Shown here: positions 20,885 to 36,647 of the stretch, piece by piece
How positions within the stretch are numbered: the first letter of the stretch is position 1
Layout of the letters: the number at the start of each line of letters is the position of its first letter
Source of the DNA: an uncultured Candidatus Saccharibacteria bacterium
Lineage (GTDB): Bacteria; Patescibacteriota; Minisyncoccia; Phycocordibacterales; SBAW01
Length of the DNA stretch: 64,000 nt
Assembly (NCBI GenBank): GCA_964615415.1
Contig: CAZTNI010000001.1
Coordinates: forward strand, 112,746 to 176,745
Direction: 5' to 3'
Translations under genes and position numbers: made by a program
The notes under the pieces: model-generated
Told to the model about the DNA's origin: nothing
The model's input: the letters and a program-made list of their open reading frames with translations, nothing else
Database searches by the model: none

Positions 20885-22072
20885 TTAATTTGTTTCTTCG
20901 GGTGTTGATTCAGTTGCAGGAGTTGCAGTTTCTTCGCCGTTTTCAGTTGCGGCGGCAATGCTTTCGCCTTTCGTTGACTGGATATCGATTCTCCAGCCGG
21001 TTAGTTTTGCTGCGAGGCGTACGTTTTGTCCGCCGCGGCCGATAGCGAGGGACTGCTGGTCCTCGGCAACTTTAATAGTCGCCTTGTGTTCTGTCTCGTC
21101 GAGGTCAACAGAGAGTACACGTGCAGGGGAAAGTGCTTCCTCAATAAATGCTTTCGGGTCCTCGTTCCACTCAATAATGTCGATCTTCTCGCCACCAAGT
21201 TCTGAGGTAACGGTCGAGACGCGAACGCCGCGCTGACCAACAAGAGAACCTACTGGGTCAACATGTGGGTCGGTCGATGCAACGGCAACCTTTGAGCGTG
21301 AGCCTGCTTCGCGAGCAATTGCTTTAAAGACAACTGTGCCGTGCGCAGCTTCTGGCGCCTCCATTTCAAACAGCTTCGCGAGGAATTGAGGATGTGCGCG
21401 AGAAAGGCGGAGATAAATACCGCGAGGAGATTCCTCTACTTGGTAGAGGAGTGCGCGCAGGCGTTCGCCCTGACGGTAGCGCTCGCCCGGAATCTGCGCT
21501 TCGTAGGGGAGGATGCCTGTTGCGCGACCAAGGTCGATGTAAATATTGCCGCGTTCCATGCGCTGTACGGTGCCTGACACAATTTCGCCTTGGCGTGCGC
21601 CGTATTCTGCAACAACAGACACTTTCTCTGCTTCGCGGATTTTCTGGATGATCACCTGCTTTGCGGTCTGTGCAGCGATGCGGCCGTAGTCATCTTTCAT
21701 TTCAAGAGGGAAGACAATTTCGTCGCCGACTTTTGCATCGCGCTTAATAAACTTCGCGTCATCAAGGAGAATGTGCTGCTCTGGGTTGTAGAGCGGCTTC
21801 TCTTCTTCGCCTTCTGCTGGTTCTGGTTCGTTGTCGAGGTCTTCCTCGAAGACAACAGTCGACTTGTCTACCACGGTCTTAACCTGCGAGAACTCAGTCG
21901 TGCCGGTATTCATATCCAAATGGGCGCGGATAATCTGGCCTTTCTTTGCGTATTCCTTTTTATATGCAGTCGCGAGCGCAGCCTCAATAGCCTCGAGTAC
22001 TTTTGCACGCGGAATACCGCGCTCTTCCTCGAGTTCGCCCAAGACTGAATTCATTACTTTAAGGTCAAACAT
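20885..22072 (-). CDS. nusA: Transcription termination/antitermination factor NusA
   Basis: N-terminal domain, S1 domain and two KH domains. 395 aa. Confidence 0.95.
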   Translation of the reverse strand: MFDLKVMNSVLGELEEERGIPRAKVLEAIEAALATAYKKEYAKKGQIIRAHLDMNTGTTEFSQVKTVVDKSTVVFEEDLDNEPEPAEGEEEKPLYNPEQHILLDDAKFIKRDAKVGDEIVFPLEMKDDYGRIAAQTAKQVIIQKIREAEKVSVVAEYGARQGEIVSGTVQRMERGNIYIDLGRATGILPYEAQIPGERYRQGERLRALLYQVEESPRGIYLRLSRAHPQFLAKLFEMEAPEAAHGTVVFKAIAREAGSRSKVAVASTDPHVDPVGSLVGQRGVRVSTVTSELGGEKIDIIEWNEDPKAFIEEALSPARVLSVDLDETEHKATIKVAEDQQSLAIGRGGQNVRLAAKLTGWRIDIQSTKGESIAAATENGEETATPATESTPEETN

Positions 22073-22221: not shown

Positions 22222-22413
22222 CTAAAGGTGGTATGCCAGGTGGAGGCTGATCGGCACCACAGAACATACGAGCGCTGCAAAGCCAAACACGCGAACAACG
22301 ATACTGACCCTCTTCTTGTTTCGCTTGTAGCGCGAGAAAAAATTCTCCCACGGCAGCACCATTGCAATGACGCCGACAATCAGGAGGGTAATACCCAGAA
22401 CCAGAAGCGGCAT
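22222..22413 (-). CDS. Small hypothetical membrane protein
   Basis: 63 aa with two hydrophobic helices, terminator downstream. Confidence 0.4.
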   Translation of the reverse strand: MPLLVLGITLLIVGVIAMVLPWENFFSRYKRNKKRVSIVVRVFGFAALVCSVVPISLHLAYHL

Positions 22414-22428
22414 GTTCGCAACCTTGTT

Positions 22429-22758
22429 CTAGTGGCCAAGCAGCAATGGTATCACAAACTCCCGCAGTACTCCGCCCGAAGGGTTGGCAACCTCAAAGTA
22501 AACTGAGACCAAGAATATAATCCCTGACGCAAGGAACAGATACATTGCGAGGAGCGGTGGGCCGACATGCGACACATCATTTCCAGCAAGTCGTGCCTTC
22601 TGGAGTTGCATGCTCTTCCGCATGATGAGGAAGCAAAAGCCAACGAAACAGAGTATTTCCGCAAGGAACAATACCAGGCTTACCCAAAAGACTGTGTTAG
22701 GAGACATCGCTATTCCTCCGGTTTGTGTGAATTCGTCCGCCGTGACTATACCACTCAA
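22429..22758 (-). CDS. Hypothetical membrane protein
   Basis: 109 aa (start may be the internal Met at 22707). Three hydrophobic helices. Confidence 0.4.
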   Translation of the reverse strand: MSGIVTADEFTQTGGIAMSPNTVFWVSLVLFLAEILCFVGFCFLIMRKSMQLQKARLAGNDVSHVGPPLLAMYLFLASGIIFLVSVYFEVANPSGGVLREFVIPLLLGH

Positions 22759-22773
22759 TGTATACTATGGCTA

Positions 22774-24444
22774 ATGCACGTTGATGAACGCGTCCTCGCG
22801 GATTTTCTTATTGATAGCGGACTTATCTCCCGCGGCACGCTTGCTGACGCGCGTTCGCGAGCAAGCGAACAAGGAGAAACGTTTTATGATGCGCTGTTAA
22901 GTGGTGGATTTGTTAGCGGCGACCACTTGCGTCGTGCGGCGGCGCACACACTTGGTGTGCCGTTTGTGATGCTTGAAGAAAGCGACATCGCACCGGAGGC
23001 ACTCGTGCTTATTCCGGAACCGCTTTCGCGTACGCACAACATAGTTGCATTTCGGGTGCACGACACAACTTTGGAAGTGGCGCTCCTGAACCTTGATGAT
23101 CTGAAATTACTCGAGTCGCTCCCTGTTGCAACAAGCTACAAACTCGCGCCGCGACTTACCACCCAACACTCTATAAAAAAGGCTCTGCTTGGCTATCAAA
23201 AGCACCTCAAGGAGAAGTTTGGCTCCTTTGCACAGCACGGCTTCCATGTTGTGGAAGGCCTTATAAAACACGCTATTTATAGTCGTGCAGGCGGCGTGCA
23301 TATAGAACCATCTACGACGGGCTTTCTTATCCGCTACCGCATCGGCGAGATGCTGCACGAAGCTATGCAGCTTCCTGAACACGTTGGCAAACTCCTGGTC
23401 GACCAACTAAAGGCGGCAGCAAAACTATTTCCCGTTGCAAGTGCGCAAGAAGGACACTTTACTATCGAACACGATAATGAAACACACACGGTGCACCTCT
23501 CCACTATGCCGATCCATAAAGGAGAGAAGTTAGTACTTCGTCTCGCAAAACAAGATGTGCATGCAAAAATAGGAAGCTTAGAGTCCCGAGGGTTTCATGG
23601 CGAAGCGCTTGAGGCGTTACACAAAGCCCTCGCGCTGCGTTCTGGACTCATTCTGGTTGCAAGCGAAGACGCAAAACACTTGCAGTCGCTGCTCTATACA
23701 CTCCTTGCTACTGCAGCACATCCGTATCGTGCCCTTGCGAGCGTGGAAGAGGGTGTGACGTTGCATTTGCCACATGTTGCACAGGGGAGCACTACCGTCT
23801 CGAAGCTTTCCTACGCAACACTCTTGCGCACGACGCTGAAACACGACCCGGATGTGGTTATGGTCAGTCGTGTGGATGAAACAGAGGTAGCGCTCCTGGT
23901 AAGCGAGGCTGCATCAAACGGCAAACTGATCATTGCGGGTATAGAAGCTCCGTCCGCGGGCAGGGCTATAGAAAAAATGCGCAACTTCGGTGTTTCACCC
24001 CTCCTTCTAGCGTCAGTAGTAAAAGTCGCAGTTGCTTCAACGATACTACGCAAGCTGTGTCCGCACTGTCGCAGTACGCACCGGCTCTCGCGCGCGGAAG
24101 GCGCCATTTTGGAAGAGCGGGCAGACTTCGGGCGCGTCTTTACTGCATTAAAAGAAGAGGGGGTGATAGACCGCGCCGCAAGCTGGAAAGAACTCGACTT
24201 TTACTGGCCGGAGGGCTGTAGCAAATGCGAGGGGGGATATATGGGCGGGGTAGGGGTAGGAGAGGCCTTGCCTATATCTCAGGTCCAAAAAGAGCTTATT
24301 TTACGAGAGATGTCGGGGGAAGACATGGCAAACCAGGCCCGGGTAGAGGGGGGTCTAAACCTCCCGGAAGACGCCCTTTTTAAGGCTGCGAGGGGGGATA
24401 CCTCTCTAGAAGAGGTGGTAGCCCTTGTGAAACGCCCGAACTAA
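22774..24444 (+). CDS. GspE/PilB-family (type II secretion / type IV pilus ATPase-like) protein with degenerate ATPase motifs
   Basis: N-terminal T2SSE_N/MshEN-like domain (LADFLIDSGLISRGTLADARSRASEQ...) and a C-terminal tetracysteine motif (CPHC...CSKC). The Walker A position reads GLILVASEDAKHLQS instead of GPTGSGKT, Walker B reads DPDVVMVSRVDE, and the His-box reads GKLIIAGIEAPSA. Confidence 0.75.
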   Translation: MHVDERVLADFLIDSGLISRGTLADARSRASEQGETFYDALLSGGFVSGDHLRRAAAHTLGVPFVMLEESDIAPEALVLIPEPLSRTHNIVAFRVHDTTLEVALLNLDDLKLLESLPVATSYKLAPRLTTQHSIKKALLGYQKHLKEKFGSFAQHGFHVVEGLIKHAIYSRAGGVHIEPSTTGFLIRYRIGEMLHEAMQLPEHVGKLLVDQLKAAAKLFPVASAQEGHFTIEHDNETHTVHLSTMPIHKGEKLVLRLAKQDVHAKIGSLESRGFHGEALEALHKALALRSGLILVASEDAKHLQSLLYTLLATAAHPYRALASVEEGVTLHLPHVAQGSTTVSKLSYATLLRTTLKHDPDVVMVSRVDETEVALLVSEAASNGKLIIAGIEAPSAGRAIEKMRNFGVSPLLLASVVKVAVASTILRKLCPHCRSTHRLSRAEGAILEERADFGRVFTALKEEGVIDRAASWKELDFYWPEGCSKCEGGYMGGVGVGEALPISQVQKELILREMSGEDMANQARVEGGLNLPEDALFKAARGDTSLEEVVALVKRPN

Positions 24445-24498
24445 CTAGGTTTTAAGCCAAATATCGGCTCTATAGAGCCATTTTTTATATGGAAATGC

Positions 24499-24527
24499 TT
24501 GACAAAAGCCTCCTTTGGGTGTATACT
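24499..24527 (+). promoter_or_regulatory. Consensus sigma70 promoter (TTGACA-17-TATACT)
   Basis: TTGACA 24499-24504, 17-nt spacer, TATACT 24522-24527. Confidence 0.55.
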
Positions 24528-24573
24528 TAATGGGTAATAGTGTTCCTTCTATATATGTAGCTTCCGGTAGTGC

Positions 24574-24602
24574 TTGACAAAATGCGCCACCTATGATACA
24601 AT
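24574..24602 (+). promoter_or_regulatory. Consensus sigma70 promoter with extended -10 (TTGACA-17-TGaTACAAT)
   Basis: TTGACA 24574-24579, 17-nt spacer, TGaTACAAT ending at 24602. Confidence 0.55.
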
Positions 24603-24731
24603 AGAAAGGTAACAGTGCAGTACGGGTTCGCTTGTACAGCAACAACTCAATAGCAAGACAATCTGAGGAGAGAGTCTTAAGGGAAGTCCAGTCTAGTAAT
24701 AGATAGGGCTCCTTAATCAATCAATTGCTTT

Positions 24732-24776
24732 AAACAAAGGCGATTGGCTCCTCAAACAAGGGCCAGTCGCCTTTGT
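24732..24776 (+). repeat. 16-bp stem hairpin
   Basis: aacaaaggcgattggc ... gccagtcgcctttgtt (one G-U pair), 13-nt loop. Confidence 0.7.
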
Positions 24777-24784
24777 TCGTTAGT

Positions 24785-24848
24785 AGGGACACTTCTGGAG
24801 GTAGGTCAAAAATTTTAAACCAAACCAGCCTGATCTCCAGAAGTGTCC
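24785..24848 (+). repeat. Perfect 14-bp stem hairpin with 34-nt A/T-rich loop
   Basis: ggacacttctggag ... ctccagaagtgtcc. Loop gtaggtcaaaaattttaaaccaaaccagcctgat. Confidence 0.7.
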
Positions 24849-25016
24849 TCGCTACGACAGTATGTGCAGTCGGTGAGTGGAGGATGGGTCTCTGACAACA
24901 AAATAGCGAATTAAGTTCAACAGGAGAAAAACTGTTGCGTAAGCAACGACTCCATATTGTTGTTCTTCTTCGCCGAGCTGACCTCACATAGGTCGGAGCG
25001 GCAAGAAGGATCGCAA

Positions 25017-25262
25017 ATGATCCTGAAGTTCTTTTTCAACCCGCCGCTCAATGCGGCAGAGGAGATTCAGATGAACAAGGCAGAGCGTGCAGTGAAGGTC
25101 CAGCTTGCGCTGGAGCTTCTCAAGAAGACTTCCATTCCGAAGGTCCGGAGAAATCCGGACCTAAACGCCTGGGTCAACACGGCTTCGCAGCTGCTCGGTC
25201 TCCGTGGCGACTCTGCCGCGGACTTCGAGAATGAGCTCGAAGTTGCGTACATTCGCAGCTAG
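25017..25262 (+). CDS. Hypothetical protein
   Basis: 81 aa from the ATG at 25017 (RBS aagga). The ORF track starts at TTG 24957. Confidence 0.3.
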   Translation: MILKFFFNPPLNAAEEIQMNKAERAVKVQLALELLKKTSIPKVRRNPDLNAWVNTASQLLGLRGDSAADFENELEVAYIRS

Positions 25263-25267
25263 GGCTC

Positions 25268-25316
25268 CCGGGCGACGCGAAAACTATCCCGCGTCGTCCA
25301 CCCATTCAAATTTTTG
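25268..25316 (+). terminator. Putative terminator hairpin
   Basis: gggcgacgcg-aaaactatcc-cgcgtcgtcc, then ...atttttgg. The T-run is displaced 8-9 nt, hence weak. Confidence 0.35.
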
Positions 25317-25382
25317 GACAATCGAAAATTTGAACGGGTCGCAATCAGGCGATTCCGAAACCCTCAAGGGGAGGTACGTGTC

Positions 25383-25793
25383 ATGGGCTATAACGAAACC
25401 GGACGCCTCTTCGAGAGGCGAGTAATCGGTGAGTGCACGGTGTCCTACCAAGGTCACCTGTGCTGGAAGGAAGCTGCCGCGCAGGTTCGCAAGAATCAGC
25501 CGAAGCAGCTTCCGAAGAATGCCACGGACCTTCTCGCGGAGGTTCGCCGGCAGACCAAGGCCGATGTGCAGTTCTACACTGCGATCGGCAGCGCCCTGGA
25601 TTACTTTCACGGCGTTGACGGATTCTTTGAGTTTGCGGGCTTTGTGGTGACGATCGACGTTACCAAGAACCCGCACAAGGATTGTGGGAAGGCCAACATG
25701 GTCGTCTGCGAAGACGATCTTGAAGATCTTCCTGCGCTTGCGGGCCGCGTGGTCCGCGAGTTTGTAACGCAAGCGAGGAGAGCAGGAATATAA
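25383..25793 (+). CDS. Hypothetical protein
   Basis: 136 aa from the ATG preceded by RBS aggggagg. GC3-rich codon usage. No family recognised. Confidence 0.45.
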   Translation: MGYNETGRLFERRVIGECTVSYQGHLCWKEAAAQVRKNQPKQLPKNATDLLAEVRRQTKADVQFYTAIGSALDYFHGVDGFFEFAGFVVTIDVTKNPHKDCGKANMVVCEDDLEDLPALAGRVVREFVTQARRAGI

Positions 25794-25795
25794 AA

Positions 25796-26047
25796 ATGAA
25801 AAACCGCAAACCTCGCGCGGCGTTTCTGTTTGAATGCCGACGATGCGGGGGGCAGTACCCCGTCTCCAAAAAGACGGCGGAGCAGTTCCTCTCCAAGGAA
25901 TTGCGAAAAAAGCTCAAACACGCTCTTGGTCATGAAGGAGCTGTGGGAGCCGTTCTAACGTTTAAGAACGGATGTCCCCAGTGCGTCCCGGAAAATCTTG
26001 AGGCAGTAGTTGAGCTTTCGGTCCTAGAGCCGAAACAAACGCACTAA
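25796..26047 (+). CDS. Small zinc-ribbon-like protein (CxxC...CxxC)
   Basis: 83 aa: FECRRCGG...NGCPQC. Confidence 0.4.
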   Translation: MKNRKPRAAFLFECRRCGGQYPVSKKTAEQFLSKELRKKLKHALGHEGAVGAVLTFKNGCPQCVPENLEAVVELSVLEPKQTH

Positions 26048-26395
26048 CGAGGCGAGCAGCAATGCTCGCCTCCTCTATAACCCAGCTGACACCCTGTTGG
26101 CTGGATTTCGAGGAGACTGCCAGACATGATCATGACCGAGGTTCTCATTCTGAACCCCCGCCGCTGCAAGTGCCGCTGGCACCGTTTCAAGACGGTGTAC
26201 TGCCACGAGGCGCCGGCGTTGGCCCAGCTCCTGCGGGAGATGGGCTACCAGGCCAGGCTTCGCCTCGCTTAGTACACAAATGGTTTGGATGGGACGAGCG
26301 CGTAATTGCTCGCCCCACCAATTAAGTTTTTTACACAGGTAGAAAATTTAATTGGTCATCATTCGATGGCTGATTGTTCAAACGGAGGAAGTGTA

Positions 26396-26797
26396 ATGAT
26401 CAAGTTTCTTGGAATTTTGATTCTCGCGCTCAGTGCCAACATGTTCTTCGTCCTCGTGTTCGACCCGCAGGGCATGTCGGCCGAGGGCTACATCCTCGGC
26501 TGGGGCATGACCCTGGCGGCGATTTTCGCTGGCCCGGCGACCTGGCGCATGGCTGGGGGACACGCTCCTGTAGAGGGGTGGGGAGTCGCGTTCCTCGCTA
26601 TCTCCCTCTGCGTCACCGCAATCAGTGTCTACCTGTTCGTGGATGTCGCGATGCTTGCGAGGACTGCCGAGACTGAGGCTTCCATCGTCCTCGGCGTGTT
26701 CGCCGCCATGCTGGCGGGCCTCGGACTGCTCATGGCCCATCTGGCTCAGAAGCTCATGGCGGACAGCATCAACGAGCCCGCCACTTCCAACACGTAA
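26396..26797 (+). CDS. Hypothetical multi-pass membrane protein
   Basis: 133 aa from the ATG at 26396 (RBS ggagg), four hydrophobic helices, strong GC3 bias. Confidence 0.5.
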   Translation: MIKFLGILILALSANMFFVLVFDPQGMSAEGYILGWGMTLAAIFAGPATWRMAGGHAPVEGWGVAFLAISLCVTAISVYLFVDVAMLARTAETEASIVLGVFAAMLAGLGLLMAHLAQKLMADSINEPATSNT

Positions 26798-26884
26798 CGG
26801 CAACAAGCCGTTCAAGAGGCAAGCGTTCGCGCTTGCCTCACTATCTAAGTTCTTATCTCGTCATCAAGACGGATGAGAGTTTAG

Positions 26885-26910
26885 ATAGGACCGCAAATCA
26901 GTTGTGGTCC
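26885..26910 (+). promoter_or_regulatory. Operator-like palindrome ATAGGACCGCAAATCAgTTGTGGTCC
   Basis: GGACC-N13-GGTCC dyad immediately upstream of the RBS/ATG of the 26935 gene. A near-identical copy lies at 27171-27196. Confidence 0.5.
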
Positions 26911-26934
26911 TGAAGTTCAACAAGGAGAGAAGCG

Positions 26935-27102
26935 ATGTGGATTCTTCTTACGCTCGCAGCTTGCGTGTTTGCCTACGCGGGCAAGCATCCGGATACCTTC
27001 GGACTGGCGCATGACGACTCTTTTCTGATGTATGTGATCGCAGTCGTTTTCGTCCTCTGGGCGATCATGGCTGCCATCACCGCTTCCGTACGGAAGTGGT
27101 GA
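26935..27102 (+). CDS. Small hydrophobic protein (55 aa, two predicted helices)
   Basis: MWILLTLAACVFAYAGKHPDTFGLAHDDSFLMYVIAVVFVLWAIMAAITASVRKW. RBS aaggagag 6 nt upstream. Below the ORF-track length cutoff. The opposite-strand ORF 26917-27123 is considered spurious. Confidence 0.4.
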   Translation: MWILLTLAACVFAYAGKHPDTFGLAHDDSFLMYVIAVVFVLWAIMAAITASVRKW

Positions 27103-27170
27103 CCAACCAAGGAGCAAGCGCAAATGCTTGCTCCACTATTTAAGTTTTTCAGTGAATGGAAAATTTAAAT

Positions 27171-27196
27171 AGGACCGCAAATCATTTGTGGTCCGA
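27171..27196 (+). promoter_or_regulatory. Operator-like palindrome ATAGGACCGCAAATCAtTTGTGGTCC (copy 2)
   Basis: Same dyad as 26885-26910, upstream of the 27219 gene. Confidence 0.5.
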
Positions 27197-27218
27197 TGGT
27201 TCAACCAAGGAGAGTGCA

Positions 27219-27560
27219 ATGACTGTTCTGAAGATTGTTGTTCTGTTCATCCTGCAGGCCGTCGCTTTTGTTGCGTATGTGGCGGCGGGGTTTGCTGCTG
27301 TGTTTCTCGTTCTGGCGGCTATCGGGTCTGTCGTTCATCTGATCGGCAACCAGGACCAGATCGACGAGCTGCAGGCATGGCTCGTGTTCTTCGCCTACAT
27401 CGGCGCGTTCGCGGTGATCGCGACCGTCGGGAACTTCCTCGACGCGCTGTTTTCCGCTTGCGATGCCGAGCGCAAGGCGATCATCGTTCGGTGGAAGTAC
27501 GACCGTCAGACGCGGCGGCTCTACCCGAACGCTGGCAAGCCGAGCCTCGACTTCCGCTAA
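27219..27560 (+). CDS. Hypothetical membrane protein
   Basis: 113 aa from the ATG at 27219 (RBS aaggagag), three hydrophobic helices. Confidence 0.5.
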   Translation: MTVLKIVVLFILQAVAFVAYVAAGFAAVFLVLAAIGSVVHLIGNQDQIDELQAWLVFFAYIGAFAVIATVGNFLDALFSACDAERKAIIVRWKYDRQTRRLYPNAGKPSLDFR

Positions 27561-27657
27561 CTACAAGCGGGAGTACAATTGGAGCAAGCTCAAGCAGCTT
27601 GCTCCCTCTACAAAGCTAATAAGCAATCCCGCTTACTAGCTTTCGGAGGGAACGAAG

Positions 27658-27825
27658 ATGATTCTCCAGTACCTTCAGAAGGGTCTTCGTCTGGCCAACG
27701 ACGCCTTCACGGCGTACACGGCCAAAGACCCGAATTACATCGCACTTAAAACTGCGGTGTTCACAGGCGTTCCCATTCTTTGGATGAAGATCCAGGAGTG
27801 GCGACGCAAACTCGCGGCGAAGTAA
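27658..27825 (+). CDS. Small hypothetical protein (55 aa)
   Basis: MILQYLQKGLRLANDAFTAYTAKDPNYIALKTAVFTGVPILWMKIQEWRRKLAAK. RBS ggaggg. Below the ORF-track cutoff. Confidence 0.35.
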   Translation: MILQYLQKGLRLANDAFTAYTAKDPNYIALKTAVFTGVPILWMKIQEWRRKLAAK

Positions 27826-27858
27826 TCTTACGATTCCTTCGCCGCTCCTTCTAAATAT

Positions 27859-28191
27859 TCAATCGATTCCTCTACAAGCGAAAGTTTGTACGGTTGAATG
27901 TTTAGAAGGGGCGATAATATCAACCCTATACAAGGCCGAGGGCGCACAGATTTTTGTTGCGTACAGCTGTTCTCCCGGTAGCACCAGGAGTTCTCGCATG
28001 TCTCGCGAGGTGAAATAACGAGCCCGGTGTTTTCCCCACCGGCCTACCTGCTCCCGCTTTGTGCGGTAAAGGGGTTCAAGAAAAAGGGAGGTGAAGACGA
28101 TGGTTGCGACCGCCTTTAGCGACAGCGACTCGTCTTGCACTAACACAATGTGTTTTGTAGAGCGCGCATTTTGAGCGCAGCTCCAAAGCAC
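27859..28191 (-). CDS. Hypothetical protein
   Basis: 110-aa ORF on the opposite strand inside the island, no recognisable family. Confidence 0.25.
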   Translation of the reverse strand: MLWSCAQNARSTKHIVLVQDESLSLKAVATIVFTSLFLEPLYRTKREQVGRWGKHRARYFTSRDMRELLVLPGEQLYATKICAPSALYRVDIIAPSKHSTVQTFACRGID

Positions 28192-28304
28192 TTTCCGACC
28201 GTTCGTATTGCATGAGTGGTCGGCTTTGTACTGTCTATACTCGAGTGGGCAATTTTTGTTCCCACTCGTTTTTCATGGGTCGCAGAAATGTTTAAACTGC
28301 GGCC

Positions 28305-28365
28305 CCGTTTCAAGATTTTTTCACAAGAAGAAATTTTGAAACGGGGATCGAAAATGTTCCCCTGC
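28305..28365 (+). promoter_or_regulatory. Conserved 5' leader, copy 1 (ccYtttcaagat..ttttgaaaSgggga-tcgaaaATGtt-cccc)
   Basis: About 85% identical to 29075-29135. A hairpin (gggga/tcccc) encloses the ATG of the uORF at 28354-28425 (MFPCVQVQVQPAPIDMGQHRRVE), whose stop overlaps the ATG at 28422. Confidence 0.5.
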
Positions 28366-28421
28366 GTGCAAGTTCAAGTTCAACCCGCTCCCATTGATAT
28401 GGGGCAACACAGGAGAGTGGA

Positions 28422-29033
28422 ATGATTCTCATCAAGGTGACCCCGAAGCAGGACGACATCTTCATCGTCGGCCCGCTCGGCCTCGCCGTGCACATGACCG
28501 CCATCACCCTCGAGGTGGAGGTGGTCATGGTGCCGACGCCGGCGACAGCGCTCGAGATGTACGAGCTGGCTATGCAGGTCAACGCGCTCGGCTTCGGCTG
28601 GGCCGGCGACCTGCTCCTTCGGGAGGCTATTCGCCTCGCGGAGAAGGAGCTCAACGAGTGGTTCACTGCTGCCGCTCTCGACATGGGCGACCTCGACGAG
28701 GCATTCCAGCTCCCGCCGGACCTCGAGGAGATTTACGGCCGCCCGCAGCCGCAGGTGTCGCGTCGTGCGACCAACCCCGGCTACGGCGGCTTCGCCGACA
28801 TGTTCGACGAGATCTTCGGTTCGGCCGATGCCTTCCGCTATCGCGGCGGCCTCGACGCCGGCCAGGATCCGTTCGTCGACGATCGGCCGTTCAACCATCG
28901 CGACTTCGGTCGGGGTCTCGGGCTCGATCACGAGGGTTCTCGGCACTTCGGCGCCGACCTCGCTGCGCGTCTCGCCAACCATGTCGGCTCGTTCGGCAAC
29001 GGCCACTATCGCGGCCACCAGCCGCATCGTTAG
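28422..29033 (+). CDS. Hypothetical protein: structured N-terminal ~100 aa plus G/R/D/F-rich low-complexity C-terminus
   Basis: 203 aa with extreme GC3 bias identifying the frame. The overlapping ORFs 28394-29197 (+) and 28380-29027 (-) are alternative-frame artefacts of the high-GC DNA. Confidence 0.5.
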   Translation: MILIKVTPKQDDIFIVGPLGLAVHMTAITLEVEVVMVPTPATALEMYELAMQVNALGFGWAGDLLLREAIRLAEKELNEWFTAAALDMGDLDEAFQLPPDLEEIYGRPQPQVSRRATNPGYGGFADMFDEIFGSADAFRYRGGLDAGQDPFVDDRPFNHRDFGRGLGLDHEGSRHFGADLAARLANHVGSFGNGHYRGHQPHR

Positions 29034-29074
29034 TACTGTCTACAACATTGGCGAACGCGCTTACGCGTTCGCCA

Positions 29075-29135
29075 CCCTTTCAAGATCTTTTTTCGAAAGA
29101 GATTTTGAAAGGGGATTCGAAAATGTTTCCCTGGA
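29075..29135 (+). promoter_or_regulatory. Conserved 5' leader, copy 2
   Basis: The uORF 29123-29197 (MFPWNVCNRPVGNGANKEEVHEQP) overlaps the downstream ATG at 29184, and the hairpin around its start codon is conserved. Confidence 0.5.
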
Positions 29136-29183
29136 ATGTGTGTAACCGCCCCGTCGGAAATGGGGCAAACAAGGAGGAAGTGC

Positions 29184-29342
29184 ATGAGCAACCGTGACAT
29201 CGAGCGCGTCGCCGCCGCCCGCGGCATCTCGAACAACGCGGCGAAGAAGATGATGCGGCGCCGCAAGGGCGGCACCAAGTCGCCCGCCGTCCCGGTCCGC
29301 GGGATGCCCGTTGCCGGCACCGGCAAGCCCAAGGGCGAATAG
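29184..29342 (+). CDS. Small basic protein (52 aa)
   Basis: MSNRDIERVAAARGISNNAAKKMMRRRKGGTKSPAVPVRGMPVAGTGKPKGE. RBS aaggagga 7 nt upstream. Confidence 0.35.
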   Translation: MSNRDIERVAAARGISNNAAKKMMRRRKGGTKSPAVPVRGMPVAGTGKPKGE

Positions 29343-29463
29343 TCTGATCTTTTCCTGGGCGGACGCAAATGTCCGCCCTCTACTTAAGTTCGCCACGGTG
29401 TATAGTGGTGGTGGACTTAACGGGAGTTCTAACCGCGGAGGAAATCCGCAGAAAGGAGGGAAG

Positions 29464-29658
29464 GTGAGTATTGAAAGGTACTTGTGGACCATCTGGGCGG
29501 TGATCGCTGTTGTGGCGGTTGCTGCTGCGGAGGGCCATTGGGTCATGGTGGCTGTCGTACTTCTGGTCACTGCGCTCATGGCTAAGGCCTTTGGGCCGTG
29601 GCCGCGTCCTTGGAAGCGGCATTCAGTTTCGGAGGTCCGGCATGGACCTGCGGAATGA
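29464..29658 (+). CDS. Small hydrophobic protein (GTG start)
   Basis: RBS aaaggaggg, then GTG. VSIERYLWTIWAVIAVVAVAAAEGHWVMVAVVLLVTALMAKAF... Confidence 0.3.
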   Translation: MSIERYLWTIWAVIAVVAVAAAEGHWVMVAVVLLVTALMAKAFGPWPRPWKRHSVSEVRHGPAE

Positions 29659-29782
29659 GCGGCCTATTCCCGAAGACGAGGAGAATCCGAACCGAGGCAT
29701 GTGGGTATTCGTACTCAGCATGATACTCGGGGTGGCGCTCGTACTTGGGCTCGCTACGTGGCGAGGTGTCCTTGTACTCTGA
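29642..29782 (+). CDS. Small hydrophobic protein (46 aa)
   Basis: MDLRNERPIPEDEENPNRGMWVFVLSMILGVALVLGLATWRGVLVL. RBS ggagg. Overlaps the previous gene by 17 nt. Confidence 0.3.
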   Translation: MDLRNERPIPEDEENPNRGMWVFVLSMILGVALVLGLATWRGVLVL

Positions 29783-29805
29783 TCGTCTGCTTCGGGAGCG
29801 AAAAC

Positions 29806-29838
29806 GGACGAACGCGAAATTATGTCTCGCGTTCGTCC
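29806..29838 (+). terminator. GC hairpin (perfect 12-bp stem) followed by 'ctctattcagtt'
   Basis: ggacgaacgcga-aattatgtc-tcgcgttcgtcc. Confidence 0.45.
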
Positions 29839-30026
29839 ACTCTATTCAGTTCGCCTTATATAAGGTGAACTGATCGAGTCTTTGTAAAACTGTTTCGTAC
29901 TCGGCGTGCCCAGTGTCATGGCAGCAAAAACTCTCTCCTCGAGAAATTTTTCTTCGCTTCTATGATGCTTGGCACGCCGAGTATGTATTTCGGTTTTACT
30001 GTGTAACTGAAACAAAGGAGACTTGA

Positions 30027-30524
30027 ATGTCTGCACCTTCAACACCTGCTCCTGCGAATGCTGGCATGTCGTGGAAGCTGAAGGTTTTGATCGCCGTCGC
30101 CGTCGCCGGGCTCATCGCTTGGTGGGGCATCGACAGCAACCTTCGCTTCGGATTGTGGGGATGGGCGGCTGGTGCCGCCTTCCTCATCACACTGTTCTTC
30201 CTGAGTGGTGTGATCGGTTGGACGATGAAGCACCCGGTCGCTACTCTCATCGGTCTCGTAGCCTTCCTCTACGGAGGCGTCTACCTTTGGCAGACGCTCT
30301 CGGAAGGTCGGCCGCCGTTCGGTAGCTGGATGACGCCCGAAACCCAGGCGAAGTTCGGCGAAACGGGCGAGCTGATGGATCCGTTCAACCTCGCTCTGAT
30401 CCTCGTCGCTGGCGCTGGCGGACTGTTCTTCTTGTGGAAGGCCTGGGAAAATGGCCGCAAGAATCGCGAAGAAGCCAAGAAGAAGAAGGCAGAAGCTGCC
30501 AAACACAAGGGCAGTGGCCACTAG
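30027..30524 (+). CDS. Hypothetical membrane protein with Lys-rich C-terminus
   Basis: 165 aa, four hydrophobic helices. RBS aaaggag. Confidence 0.5.
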   Translation: MSAPSTPAPANAGMSWKLKVLIAVAVAGLIAWWGIDSNLRFGLWGWAAGAAFLITLFFLSGVIGWTMKHPVATLIGLVAFLYGGVYLWQTLSEGRPPFGSWMTPETQAKFGETGELMDPFNLALILVAGAGGLFFLWKAWENGRKNREEAKKKKAEAAKHKGSGH

Positions 30525-30555
30525 TACCTTGCGGCAAGTGCCGCACAACAATATC

Positions 30556-30594
30556 GGGCCCCCGACGCTTCGCGCGTCGGGGGCCTTTTCTGTT
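30556..30594 (+). terminator. Intrinsic terminator (right edge of the high-GC block)
   Basis: gggcccccgacg-cttcgcg-cgtcgggggcc-ttttctgtt. Confidence 0.6.
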
Positions 30595-30599
30595 ATTAT

Positions 30600-31367
30600 G
30601 TGCACATGGCAAAAAAGCGTCTCGTGGTTGGTAACTGGAAAATGTATATTACTTCGCCTGAGGACGCATCAAAGTTTACAGTCGCGCTTCGCCGCAAGGT
30701 GCGCGGAGTCTCCGGTGTCGATGTATTTCTTGCTCCTCCGTTTACTATCCTTCCTAAAGTAGCGGACACACTCAGTAGTTCTCCTATACAGGTCGGCGCG
30801 CAAACTATCTCTGCTTTTATGGACGAAAAGCACACAGGAGATATTTCAGGAGTGATGCTTAAAAAAGCTGGTGCCTCGTTTGTTATTATTGGCCACTCCG
30901 AGCGCCGTTCACTCGGCGAAACGAACGAGCTCGTGCACGACCAAGTACTTCGCGCAGTTGAGTCGGGCCTTACGCCTATTCTTTGTATTGGCGAAAAAGA
31001 ACATGAAGAAGGCGGCGCACATTTTAATTTTATTGAACAGCAACTTTCGTCGGCTCTCAAAGACCTTCCACCAAAAGCTGTAAAGAAATTAATTATTGCC
31101 TACGAACCCGTGTGGGCGATAGGGAAAGCGGCAGCCGATGCTATGAAGCCGCAGGACCTTGAGCAGATGGTTATCTTCATTAAAAAAGTGCTCGCCGACT
31201 CGCTCGACCGCAAGGTGGCGCTCAGCGTGCCGATCCTGTACGGAGGTTCAGTAGAAGCAGAGAATGCGCCGAGTTTGTTGGAAACAGGGATCTCGGGCTT
31301 CCTTGTGGGGCGCGCAAGTACCGACGTTGATTCATTTACGCAGATAATCACTCTATGCAAAAAATAA
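30600..31367 (+). CDS. tpiA: Triosephosphate isomerase
   Basis: VVGNWKM, IIGHSERR, AYEPVWAIG motifs. Confidence 0.95.
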   Translation: MHMAKKRLVVGNWKMYITSPEDASKFTVALRRKVRGVSGVDVFLAPPFTILPKVADTLSSSPIQVGAQTISAFMDEKHTGDISGVMLKKAGASFVIIGHSERRSLGETNELVHDQVLRAVESGLTPILCIGEKEHEEGGAHFNFIEQQLSSALKDLPPKAVKKLIIAYEPVWAIGKAAADAMKPQDLEQMVIFIKKVLADSLDRKVALSVPILYGGSVEAENAPSLLETGISGFLVGRASTDVDSFTQIITLCKK

Positions 31368-35264: not shown

Positions 35265-36647
35265 GTGCGGTACACCAAGGGCGCTGTGAGACCCTGGTCA
35301 CTCAAGACTTTTTATATTCGTGCAGCCATACTACTCGCTTTTTTGAGTGTATTTCTTTTCCGGTTACACGCGACCTTGGAGGCAGAACAAGTACAGGAAC
35401 TAACGCAATTTGCTGGTGAAACAGTGCAAGTTGCGGGGGTGGTTACGGAGGAGCCTGAACGCCGAGAAACATCCTTGCATGTATATCTTGCGGCGAGGGA
35501 AGTGGGTGGCGAGTCTCAAACAGGTAAGGCGCTCGTCGTCCTTCCACGCGATACGAGCGTTTCATATGGAGATAGTGTGGTCGTGCGTGGAAAGATTTCT
35601 TTGCCGGAAAATTTTGAAACGAGTACAGGTCGCGAATTCGATTATAAAAATTATTTGCGTGTGCGCGGAGTGTCTGTGTTGATGCGATATGCAGACGTTG
35701 TTGCGATAGAAGAAGGAGGGTGGTCAGTTACAAAAAGTTTATACGAACTGAAACATGCGTTTGAAACATCGATCGAACGGGTGTTTATCGAGCCGCATGC
35801 ATCGCTCGTCGAAGGGATGCTGCTTGGTGCACGGCGTGGGATTCCCGATGATCTGACGCAAGCATTCGTGCTCGCCGGGCTCATCCATGTACTGGTACTC
35901 TCGGGCTACAACATTTCGATTGTTGCAGAAGCCATGCTGCGCGCGTTGTCATTTTTACCGCGGAAGTATGGGTTTGTGGTTGGAGGCGTCATGATGATTT
36001 TGTTTGCACTCATGACCGGCGCAGGTGCGGCAACGGTGCGCGCAACTATTATGGGACTGATCGCAATTCTTGCACGCTATCTTAACCGGCCCGCCGCCGC
36101 ACTTCGTGCGCTTGGTGTAGCTGCGGCGGCGATGGTGTTGTGGAACCCGCTTGCGCCTGTGTACGACATTTCTTTTATTTTGAGTGTGATTGCAACATTC
36201 GGGCTCATTACGCTATCGCCATGGGTCGAGAAAAAGTTACCGAAGTTTTTTGATCGGCTGCCGAATATAAAATCTATAGCAGCATCAACAATCGCAGTCC
36301 AGATTTTTATTCTGCCTGCACTTTTATATTTCACCGGGGTCCTCTCGTTCCTTTCGGTGTTTGCAAACATTCTCGCCCTGCCGGTTGTGCCACTTATTAT
36401 GTTGTTAGGATTTGTTGCAGGCTTACTTGGGTTGCTGCACCCACTTCTTGCGCTTTTGCCAGCGTTTGGAGCGCAGGTGTTGGTCGAGTGGATACTTGTA
36501 GTTACAACAACTACTGCAGCACTTCCGTTCTCTGCAACCACCGTCGCAGCATTTCCAGTTTGGATCGCAGTAGCGGCGTACATACCCCTAACTTGGTTTG
36601 CAATTACTGCATACCGACGAAACGCTCCTCAATCTTTTTCCAATTAA
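35265..36647 (+). CDS. comEC: ComEC/Rec2 competence protein, N-terminal DUF4131 plus integral-membrane competence domain (no lactamase domain)
   Basis: 460 aa, many TM helices, ComEC-like conserved membrane core. Confidence 0.7.
   Translation: MRYTKGAVRPWSLKTFYIRAAILLAFLSVFLFRLHATLEAEQVQELTQFAGETVQVAGVVTEEPERRETSLHVYLAAREVGGESQTGKALVVLPRDTSVSYGDSVVVRGKISLPENFETSTGREFDYKNYLRVRGVSVLMRYADVVAIEEGGWSVTKSLYELKHAFETSIERVFIEPHASLVEGMLLGARRGIPDDLTQAFVLAGLIHVLVLSGYNISIVAEAMLRALSFLPRKYGFVVGGVMMILFALMTGAGAATVRATIMGLIAILARYLNRPAAALRALGVAAAAMVLWNPLAPVYDISFILSVIATFGLITLSPWVEKKLPKFFDRLPNIKSIAASTIAVQIFILPALLYFTGVLSFLSVFANILALPVVPLIMLLGFVAGLLGLLHPLLALLPAFGAQVLVEWILVVTTTTAALPFSATTVAAFPVWIAVAAYIPLTWFAITAYRRNAPQSFSN

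Follow-up and report, generated by a model that had tools for sequence, protein, structure and literature searches.

Type IV pili are considered a key part of the episymbiotic way of life of bacteria of the candidate phyla radiation (CPR), and genome surveys take 'pilB' matches as evidence of a pilus. ComGA, the active ATPase of the Gram-positive competence pseudopilus (comGA-comGB-pseudopilins), does not have an N1 domain and plays a regulatory, non-assembly role in B. subtilis K-state cells, which is a precedent for a second role in an ATPase of the PilB/GspE family. In archaea, the KaiC-like protein ArlH/FlaH lacks a canonical Walker B motif and modulates ArlI, and TadZ/CpaE is an atypical ParA/MinD-type protein of Tad pili. 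Here, a PilB-like gene is described from a 64,000-nucleotide stretch of contig CAZTNI010000001.1 (further called the window). Like ArlH/FlaH and TadZ/CpaE, its product would keep a nucleotide-binding fold for binding, regulation or localisation and not for work. However, those proteins belong to unrelated families and are encoded within their own pilus or archaellum operons, whereas in the window the apparently dead protein is the motor itself and the operon is gone.

No description of a catalytically degenerate, pseudo- or inactive PilB or GspE, in the CPR or elsewhere, was found in the literature searched. Saccharibacteria PilB and PilT have been reported with well-conserved Walker boxes (2024 preprint, PMC11623550). 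The window gene represents a new pseudo-ATPase subfamily of PilB, for which an origin by loss of the operon is documented. The window gene is probably an orphaned, catalytically dead orthologue of pilB that has been kept by selection. As in PilB, PilF and GspE, the order of the domains is N1, N2 and C-terminal domain, with a C-terminal tetracysteine and the same predicted fold, and the gene occupies the chromosomal slot which, in sister lineages, holds the canonical pilB at the head of a pilB-pilC-prepilin operon. What sets the window gene apart from these ATPases is the replacement of Walker A, of the catalytic Glu and the Arg of Walker B, and of both His-box histidines, together with the absence of an adjoining pilC or pilin gene.

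Domains, fold and active site

The open reading frame (ORF) codes for 556 aa. Its start at 22774 (MHVDE...) agrees with all homologues, which begin with M[QH]VD and have a length of 480-590 aa, so that a longer alternative from the in-frame ATG at 22567 finds no support. The protein is identical to the public NCBI protein P0001, and public records name its homologues 'PilB', 'ATPase, T2SS/T4P/T4SS family' or 'hypothetical protein'. Pfam detects T2SSE (PF00437) over residues 159-549 (E 8.8e-50, 169.8 bits against a cut-off of 24.9) and MshEN (T2SSE_N, PF05157) over residues 60-144 (E 2.8e-10), and the N1 domain keeps the family-invariant P81-E82-P83 and R86. The best relative with a solved structure is T. 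thermophilus PilF (6f8l, E 1.5e-49); the others are Geobacter and Myxococcus PilB and Vibrio GspE (E 1e-35 to 1e-49, PilF included). Among the NCBIfam models, those of GspE, PilB, TfpB and ComGA are matched too, each at one third or less of its equivalog cut-off: TIGR02538 (PilB) scores 211.5 against 675.65, the GspE models TIGR02533 and NF007755 score 188.8 against 630.25 and 215.2 against 617, and the ComGA model (E 9.8e-29) scores 100 against 300.

An AlphaFold model, built from a family alignment of 120 sequences, has a mean predicted local distance difference test score (pLDDT) of 93.4, a predicted template modelling score (pTM) of 0.78 and no disordered segments. Its top Foldseek matches are GspE 4pht (3.5e-34), PilF 5oiu and PilB 5tsh, all at 1e-33 to 1e-34, with a probability of 1.00 and a target-normalised TM-score of 0.62-0.66. 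By profile and by predicted fold, the window protein thus appears to be a member of the GspE/PilB secretion-ATPase superfamily, in line with an earlier model-made reading of the letters and ORFs (the sequence-only reading), which had called it a GspE/PilB-type protein with an N-terminal MshEN-family domain.

The catalytic motifs were read from a residue-level alignment to PilF and from family alignments; the replaced segments are listed in Table 1. At the former Walker A, the Lys position is taken by L303 and the Thr position by Q304, which does not fit [AG]xxxxGK[ST]. The Asp box retains E325 and E326, with T329 at the third acidic position. At the former Walker B, the Asp (DPD) is retained, while the catalytic Glu has become R366 and the Arg has become D368 (VVMVSRVDE versus hhhhGEIRD). 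In the former His box, the first His is replaced by K384 and the second by E391, departing from GHLVLSTLHTN. Both kinds of alignment confirm the motif positions of the sequence-only reading, and its claim that Walker A, Walker B with the catalytic Glu, and the His box are ablated holds. With these three replaced, canonical ATP hydrolysis is excluded on sequence grounds, as had been claimed, and the window protein would be unable either to bind ATP or to split it by the canonical route.

The tetracysteine of the Zn/C2 subdomain, also noticed earlier, is intact (C429-P-H-C432 ... C482-S-K-C485). Within this subdomain, R440, E447, K460, W471 and K472 are conserved at 90% or more only in the clade of 24 degenerate proteins to which the window protein belongs (the orphan clade). 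The four-Cys site is complete in the window protein and in a few clade members (L005, L016, L089); the number of Cys ranges from none to four in the orphan clade and is at most two in the canonical PilB of sister lineages shown in the alignment. Possession of the Zn site does not track catalytic competence here.

Family, synteny and loss of the filament genes

All 120 homologues among the matches listed come from Parcubacteria/Paceibacterota metagenome-assembled genomes. In the 109 non-canonical members among these listed matches, His never stands at the first His-box position and stands at the second in 1%. Glu persists at the catalytic position in 11%, where 45% have Asp, and the Walker A Lys is kept in 72%, its replacements being Arg (n=15), Val (n=7), Thr (n=4) and, in the window protein only, Leu. 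When 1.84 billion cluster representatives were searched exhaustively by HMMER with a profile built from close relatives, 151 representatives (clusters at 50% identity) were scored: 109 lack both histidines, 30 are fully canonical and 12 are intermediate. Of the 113 that lack the first histidine, the Walker A Lys is kept by 73 and the Glu by 31. The degenerate family covers more than 100 clusters at 50% identity. Several close representatives (P0254, P0257, P0271, P0272, P0280, P0291, P0309 and others) are proteins of about 1000 aa (about 980-1050 aa) with canonical PilB motifs, a length consistent with PilB-PilC fusions or read-through gene calls.

Every degenerate homologue with a readable contig sits in one syntenic slot, with the same layout as the window: RNase Y-clpP-tig-ppa-nusA (all minus), the divergent PilB-like gene (+), 0-6 kb of variable DNA, and tpiA-pgk-HIT (-)-recJ-RNase H-comEC-sodA (-). 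Canonical PilB (P0119, L008) is found in the same slot after tig-ppa-nusA (TF-PPase-nusA), followed by PilC (T2SSF) and, in L008, by three genes whose products (about 578, 206 and 477 aa) have an N-terminus of the prepilin type. A locus scan with a 10-sequence alignment as query and one genome per GTDB species yielded 80 loci, which were annotated by tblastn together with ten fetched earlier. Many canonical loci have the full order of nusA followed by pilB-pilC-prepilins-tpiA-pgk-recJ. With four loci left out as too short to judge, the 85 testable loci comprise 62 canonical ones with pilC, 23 degenerate ones without it, and no mixed case.

In a neighbour-joining tree, the 24 degenerate proteins form one clade without canonical intruders. 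The genomes of this clade encode a NusA with 80-96% identity to that of the window, compared to 58-72% in canonical-bearing genomes; the latter sister lineages are Kaiserbacteria-like and the orphan clade is Adlerbacteria-like (Paceibacteria, CPR). The closest canonical matches to the window protein are nusA-linked pilB products, at 34-36% identity. Based on the shared slot and on its branching beside these pilB, the window gene appears to be an orthologue of the nusA-linked Paceibacteria pilB. None of the 24 clade members has either His-box histidine. Within the clade the Walker A Lys disappeared six times or more, on separate branches, and nucleotide binding therefore looks repeatedly dispensable.

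A single deletion of the pilC-pilin block in the clade ancestor is the simplest history. No significant pilC or pilin remnant was found in the window slot: the best tblastn match (E 0.003; 6.4-kb database, 41 queries) comes from three homologous PilC queries on one hydrophobic stretch and was judged not significant. The prepilin motif occurs 0 times in 487 kb of clade flanks versus 45 times in 1.1 Mb of canonical loci, the window holds no second PilB or pilin motif, and Pfam found no pilus genes in 20 further window proteins. The gap between the PilB-like gene and tpiA ranges from 13 bp to 6 kb in clade relatives. In many of them the gene ends only 13-45 bp before tpiA, which suggests constitutive co-expression with the glycolytic genes. 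About 11 kb downstream of the window gene, comEC is intact in a single frame (about 35286 to 36647), and it is kept in relatives too.

The ancestral nusA-linked operon is minimal, consisting of pilB, pilC and three prepilin-like genes (L008 9831-14958; L024 11759-17120; L021 11755-15264; many other canonical loci). Two of the prepilin-like genes are unusually large, with about 578 aa (weak CarboxypepD_reg match) and about 477 aa. There is no pilM/N/O, pilT or pilD in the operon, which lies a few kb upstream of recJ and comEC. In its ATPase-platform-prepilin layout, its lack of pilMNO and pilT, and its distance of a few kb from comEC, it resembles the comGA system.

Selection and possible roles

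The orphan-clade ORFs are intact in 24/24 species (487-588 aa). Between the window gene and that of L005, its nearest relative (65-66% aa identity, same length), the nonsynonymous difference (pN) is 0.23 and the synonymous one (pS) a saturated 0.77. Rates were normalised by housekeeping neighbours in the same genome pairs. The ratio d(PilB)/d(TIM), with triosephosphate isomerase (TIM, tpiA) as reference, is 1.40 in the orphan clade versus 0.48 in the canonical clade, and d(PilB)/d(NusA) is 4.4 versus 1.03. The constraint on the orphan PilB is thus relaxed 3-4-fold, yet comparable to that on glycolytic enzymes. Compared with the canonical clade, the relaxation reaches 7.9x from Walker B to the His box and 5.3x over the P-loop and Asp box. 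Elsewhere it amounts to 4.1x in N2, 2.4x in the C-terminal helices, 2.2x in N1 and 1.1x in Zn/C2 (residues 429-490), the last segment being equally constrained in the orphan clade and in canonical PilB. Purifying selection on a protein that has lost its catalytic residues is what defines a pseudo-enzyme, and these comparisons point to such selection here.

The identity of the protein, its motif losses, its positional orthology, its clade-wide retention and the pattern of rates over the domains are shown here, and the reading of an orphaned, selected pilB orthologue builds on them. In the ancestor, pilB would have encoded the ATPase that drives assembly in a compact operon for a type IV filament, with nusA diverging from pilB-pilC-three prepilin-like genes-tpiA. 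The pilC-pilin block would then have been lost in the ancestor of the Adlerbacteria-like Paceibacteria clade, leaving pilB behind. Since that time, the His box would have been lost in every member, the catalytic Glu in most and the Walker A Lys several times independently. The active site would have decayed in the order of His box, catalytic Glu and, repeatedly, P-loop, and the window copy combines all three losses with that of the P-loop glycines.

The oligomeric state, partner and cellular role we infer. Tentatively, the PilB-like protein may serve as a scaffold or regulator that needs no nucleotide and would dock by means of the parts preserved best, i.e. the N1 domain, the C-terminal helices and the Zn/C2 surface with its newly fixed residues. 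It would dock on a partner associated with the membrane; the most plausible candidate is the platform of a further type IV filament or DNA-uptake system, which is assumed to be encoded elsewhere. In GspE, the N1 domain binds a GspL/PilM-type cytoplasmic partner, and DNA uptake normally requires a type IV filament. Exaptation to a non-pilus role, as an alternative to docking on a filament platform, is equally open. It is conceivable, although we would not call it probable, that the PilB orthologue was re-purposed after deletion of the platform and pilins, that the new Zn/C2 surface (R440, E447, K460, W471, K472) binds a new partner, and that this gave rise to a large family (more than 100 clusters at 50% identity) which is specific to the CPR and works outside pilus assembly.

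Several points weigh against the reading of a selected, nucleotide-independent orthologue. The P-loop is retained in most family members, so the ancestral function retained by the family may involve nucleotide binding that is gone from the window copy, which could therefore work differently from its relatives or be losing function. The same 3-4-fold rise in rate would be seen early on in a gene that is slowly dying. The Fisher p of 2.9e-21 for the association between motif state and pilC overstates the independence of the loci, because the 24 degenerate proteins form a single clade and represent one evolutionary event. Also, no other pilus gene was found in the 64-kb window or in the 487 kb of flanks of 23 clade members.

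We consider it unlikely that the gene is a functionless relic, left by the operon deletion and slowly decaying with no present role. Such a relic would not be expected to have a full-length intact ORF in 24/24 species with saturated synonymous sites, nor a rate just 1.4x that of TIM and PGK. Its relaxation would not be centred on the active site while N1, the C-terminus and Zn/C2 stay constrained and Zn/C2 gains clade-specific residues, and a mean pLDDT of 93 also speaks against it. In CPR genomes, which are small and readily lose DNA, a 1.7-kb gene without any use would not be expected to last across more than 100 clusters at 50% identity. A relic would nevertheless fit the loss of partners and catalytic residues and the faster evolution compared to canonical PilB. 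It would also fit two features of the window copy: an inserted island parts it from tpiA, which lies within 13-45 bp in many relatives, and positions kept by 94-98% of the degenerate family are altered in it (G266I, G297S, G302H, D312A), which makes the window protein an extreme member of that family.

That the protein is still a nucleoside triphosphatase with non-canonical residues, e.g., with K301 or K384 replacing the Walker A Lys or the His-box His, seems very improbable. Although K301 lies two residues ahead of the Lys position, K384 occupies the first His-box position, and E325 of the Asp box and the Walker B Asp (DPD) are retained, the glycine-rich loop is replaced by an acidic S-E-D and the strand-to-helix loop of the former P-loop measures just 3 residues in the AlphaFold model. 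The catalytic Glu is an Arg, and Arg residues invariant in canonical PilB are replaced at H334, D368, K401, T423 and G492. The former P-loop is also the least conserved 40-residue block between the window protein and that of L005, the two closest orthologues (38% identity), which argues against a conserved alternative site.

The sequence-only reading had further suggested a signal receptor through the N-terminal domain, since MshEN binds cyclic di-GMP (c-di-GMP) in MshE. The window N-terminal domain does share its Pfam family with that of MshE, few parts of the protein are as well preserved as N1, and NfrB and MshE-related motif models match weakly (18 bits, E about 1e-3). However, the c-di-GMP-binding MshEN motif, RLGxx[LVI][LVI]xxG[LVI][LVI]xxxxLxxxLxxQ (24 residues), is absent in both strict and loose form from the window protein, the orphan clade and the canonical relatives, and the NCBIfam c-di-GMP-motif model NF053729 stays below its cut-off (18 versus 38 bits). 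Canonical PilB shares the conservation of N1, which would reflect an ordinary N1 function and so lends no support to a new ligand. A receptor for c-di-GMP or another nucleotide second messenger therefore has very little chance of being the right explanation, and the earlier suggestion is not upheld.

An assembly or sequencing artefact, frameshift or chimera hiding an intact P-loop is rejected, as [AG]xxxxGK[ST] was found in no reading frame of the gene, the public record P0001 holds the identical protein, and degeneration of the same kind is seen in 23 related species that were assembled independently (e.g., GAELRKKT at Walker A in L005).

In one entire clade, and in more than 100 sequence clusters, pilB is apparently unable to be a motor and has neither platform nor pilin genes beside it. 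Therefore, annotation-based inference of piliation or competence in these CPR lineages may be wrong. The clade also offers a natural experiment on the fate of a hexameric secretion ATPase once its machine is removed, and supplies a graded series of natural variants for biochemistry. The constrained N1, C-terminal and Zn/C2 parts point to the surfaces that would carry a non-catalytic function. The evolutionary origin is clean; no long-standing question is resolved by it.

Coordinates and neighbourhood of the gene

Table 1 Features of the window, with positions counted from its first letter, and of related loci
Feature	Position	Strand	Sequence or basis
PilB-like gene, putative pseudo-ATPase and orphaned orthologue of pilB	22774..24444	+	ORF, Pfam, PilF match, AlphaFold, Foldseek
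N1 domain (MshEN / T2SSE_N family), residues 1-145	22774..23208	+	Pfam, invariant columns
N2 domain, residues 161-285	23254..23628	+	secondary structure in AlphaFold model
Former Walker A (P-loop), residues 297-304	23662..23685	+	SEDAKHLQ instead of GPTGSGK[ST]
Asp box remnant, residues 323-329	23740..23760	+	SVEEGVT instead of TIEDPIE
Former Walker B, residues 358-369	23845..23880	+	DPDVVMVSRVDE instead of DPDIIMVGEIRD
Former His box, residues 383-394	23920..23955	+	GKLIIAGIEAPS instead of GHLVLSTLHTNS
Zn-finger / C2 subdomain	24058..24228	+	C429xxC432 ... C482xxC485
nusA, left syntenic anchor	20885..22072	-	divergent from PilB-like gene in nearly all related loci reaching far enough
Slot of pilC and three prepilin-like genes in canonical relatives	24445..30605		conserved non-coding element, then 55-59% G+C with ORFs
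tpiA (TIM), right syntenic anchor	30606..31367	+	then pgk, HIT (-), recJ, RNase H, comEC
Terminator-like hairpin and T run, 22 nt past stop codon	24466..24479	+	consensus scan only
Non-coding element in relatives	L005 4395-4822; L089 12650-12798; L011 7944-8091; L001 12020-12171; L023 12137-12285; L012 11941-12085; L065 4803-4988; L016 10046-10223; L074 6341-6541 (-)		

The interval from nusA to the PilB-like gene contains two short hydrophobic ORFs, at 22222-22413 (-) and 22429-22710 (-). They have sub-threshold Pfam matches only (DUF5671, 19 bits against 28) and are not conserved in L005, so that their status as real genes is doubtful. The small membrane-protein genes that had been reported on both sides of the gene can be recognised upstream in these weak, unconserved opposite-strand ORFs; downstream, a hairpin and a non-coding element are found instead. 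That the gene borders an island was correctly seen: a 6-kb stretch at about 25.0-30.6 kb has 55-59% G+C versus about 49% in the rest of the window.

This stretch (about 25017-30605) contains small ORFs, several of them hydrophobic (26366-26797, 27156-27560), and none has a Pfam or PHROG match; for want of such matches a phage origin was rejected. The ORF at 25383-25793 is conserved in L005 and L011. As the corresponding gap ranges from 13 bp to 6 kb in clade relatives, the slot is a variable insertion hotspot.

The PilB-like gene is followed closely by a non-coding element at about 24570-25024 (+). Over 24570-25016 it is 81% identical to L005 at the nucleotide level, versus 67% for the coding region, with similar scores in all six tblastx frames. 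Two sigma-70-like promoters (11/12) stand ahead of it (24499-24527 and 24574-24602), and a terminator-like hairpin at 25007-25024 closes it. The 3' core of the element recurs in clade members, with a covariance-model match at 24868-25024 in the window. The structure combines a long 3' hairpin with another one whose loop is GNRA-like, and compensatory changes are seen in 7 of the 28 predicted pairs of the two hairpins. No Rfam match was found for the element. According to the covariance model, L065 and the canonical-clade genome L074 carry the element elsewhere, so it is not tied to the PilB-like gene. It is probably a new, undescribed non-coding RNA gene of Paceibacteria, about 150-420 nt long and independent of the PilB-like gene.

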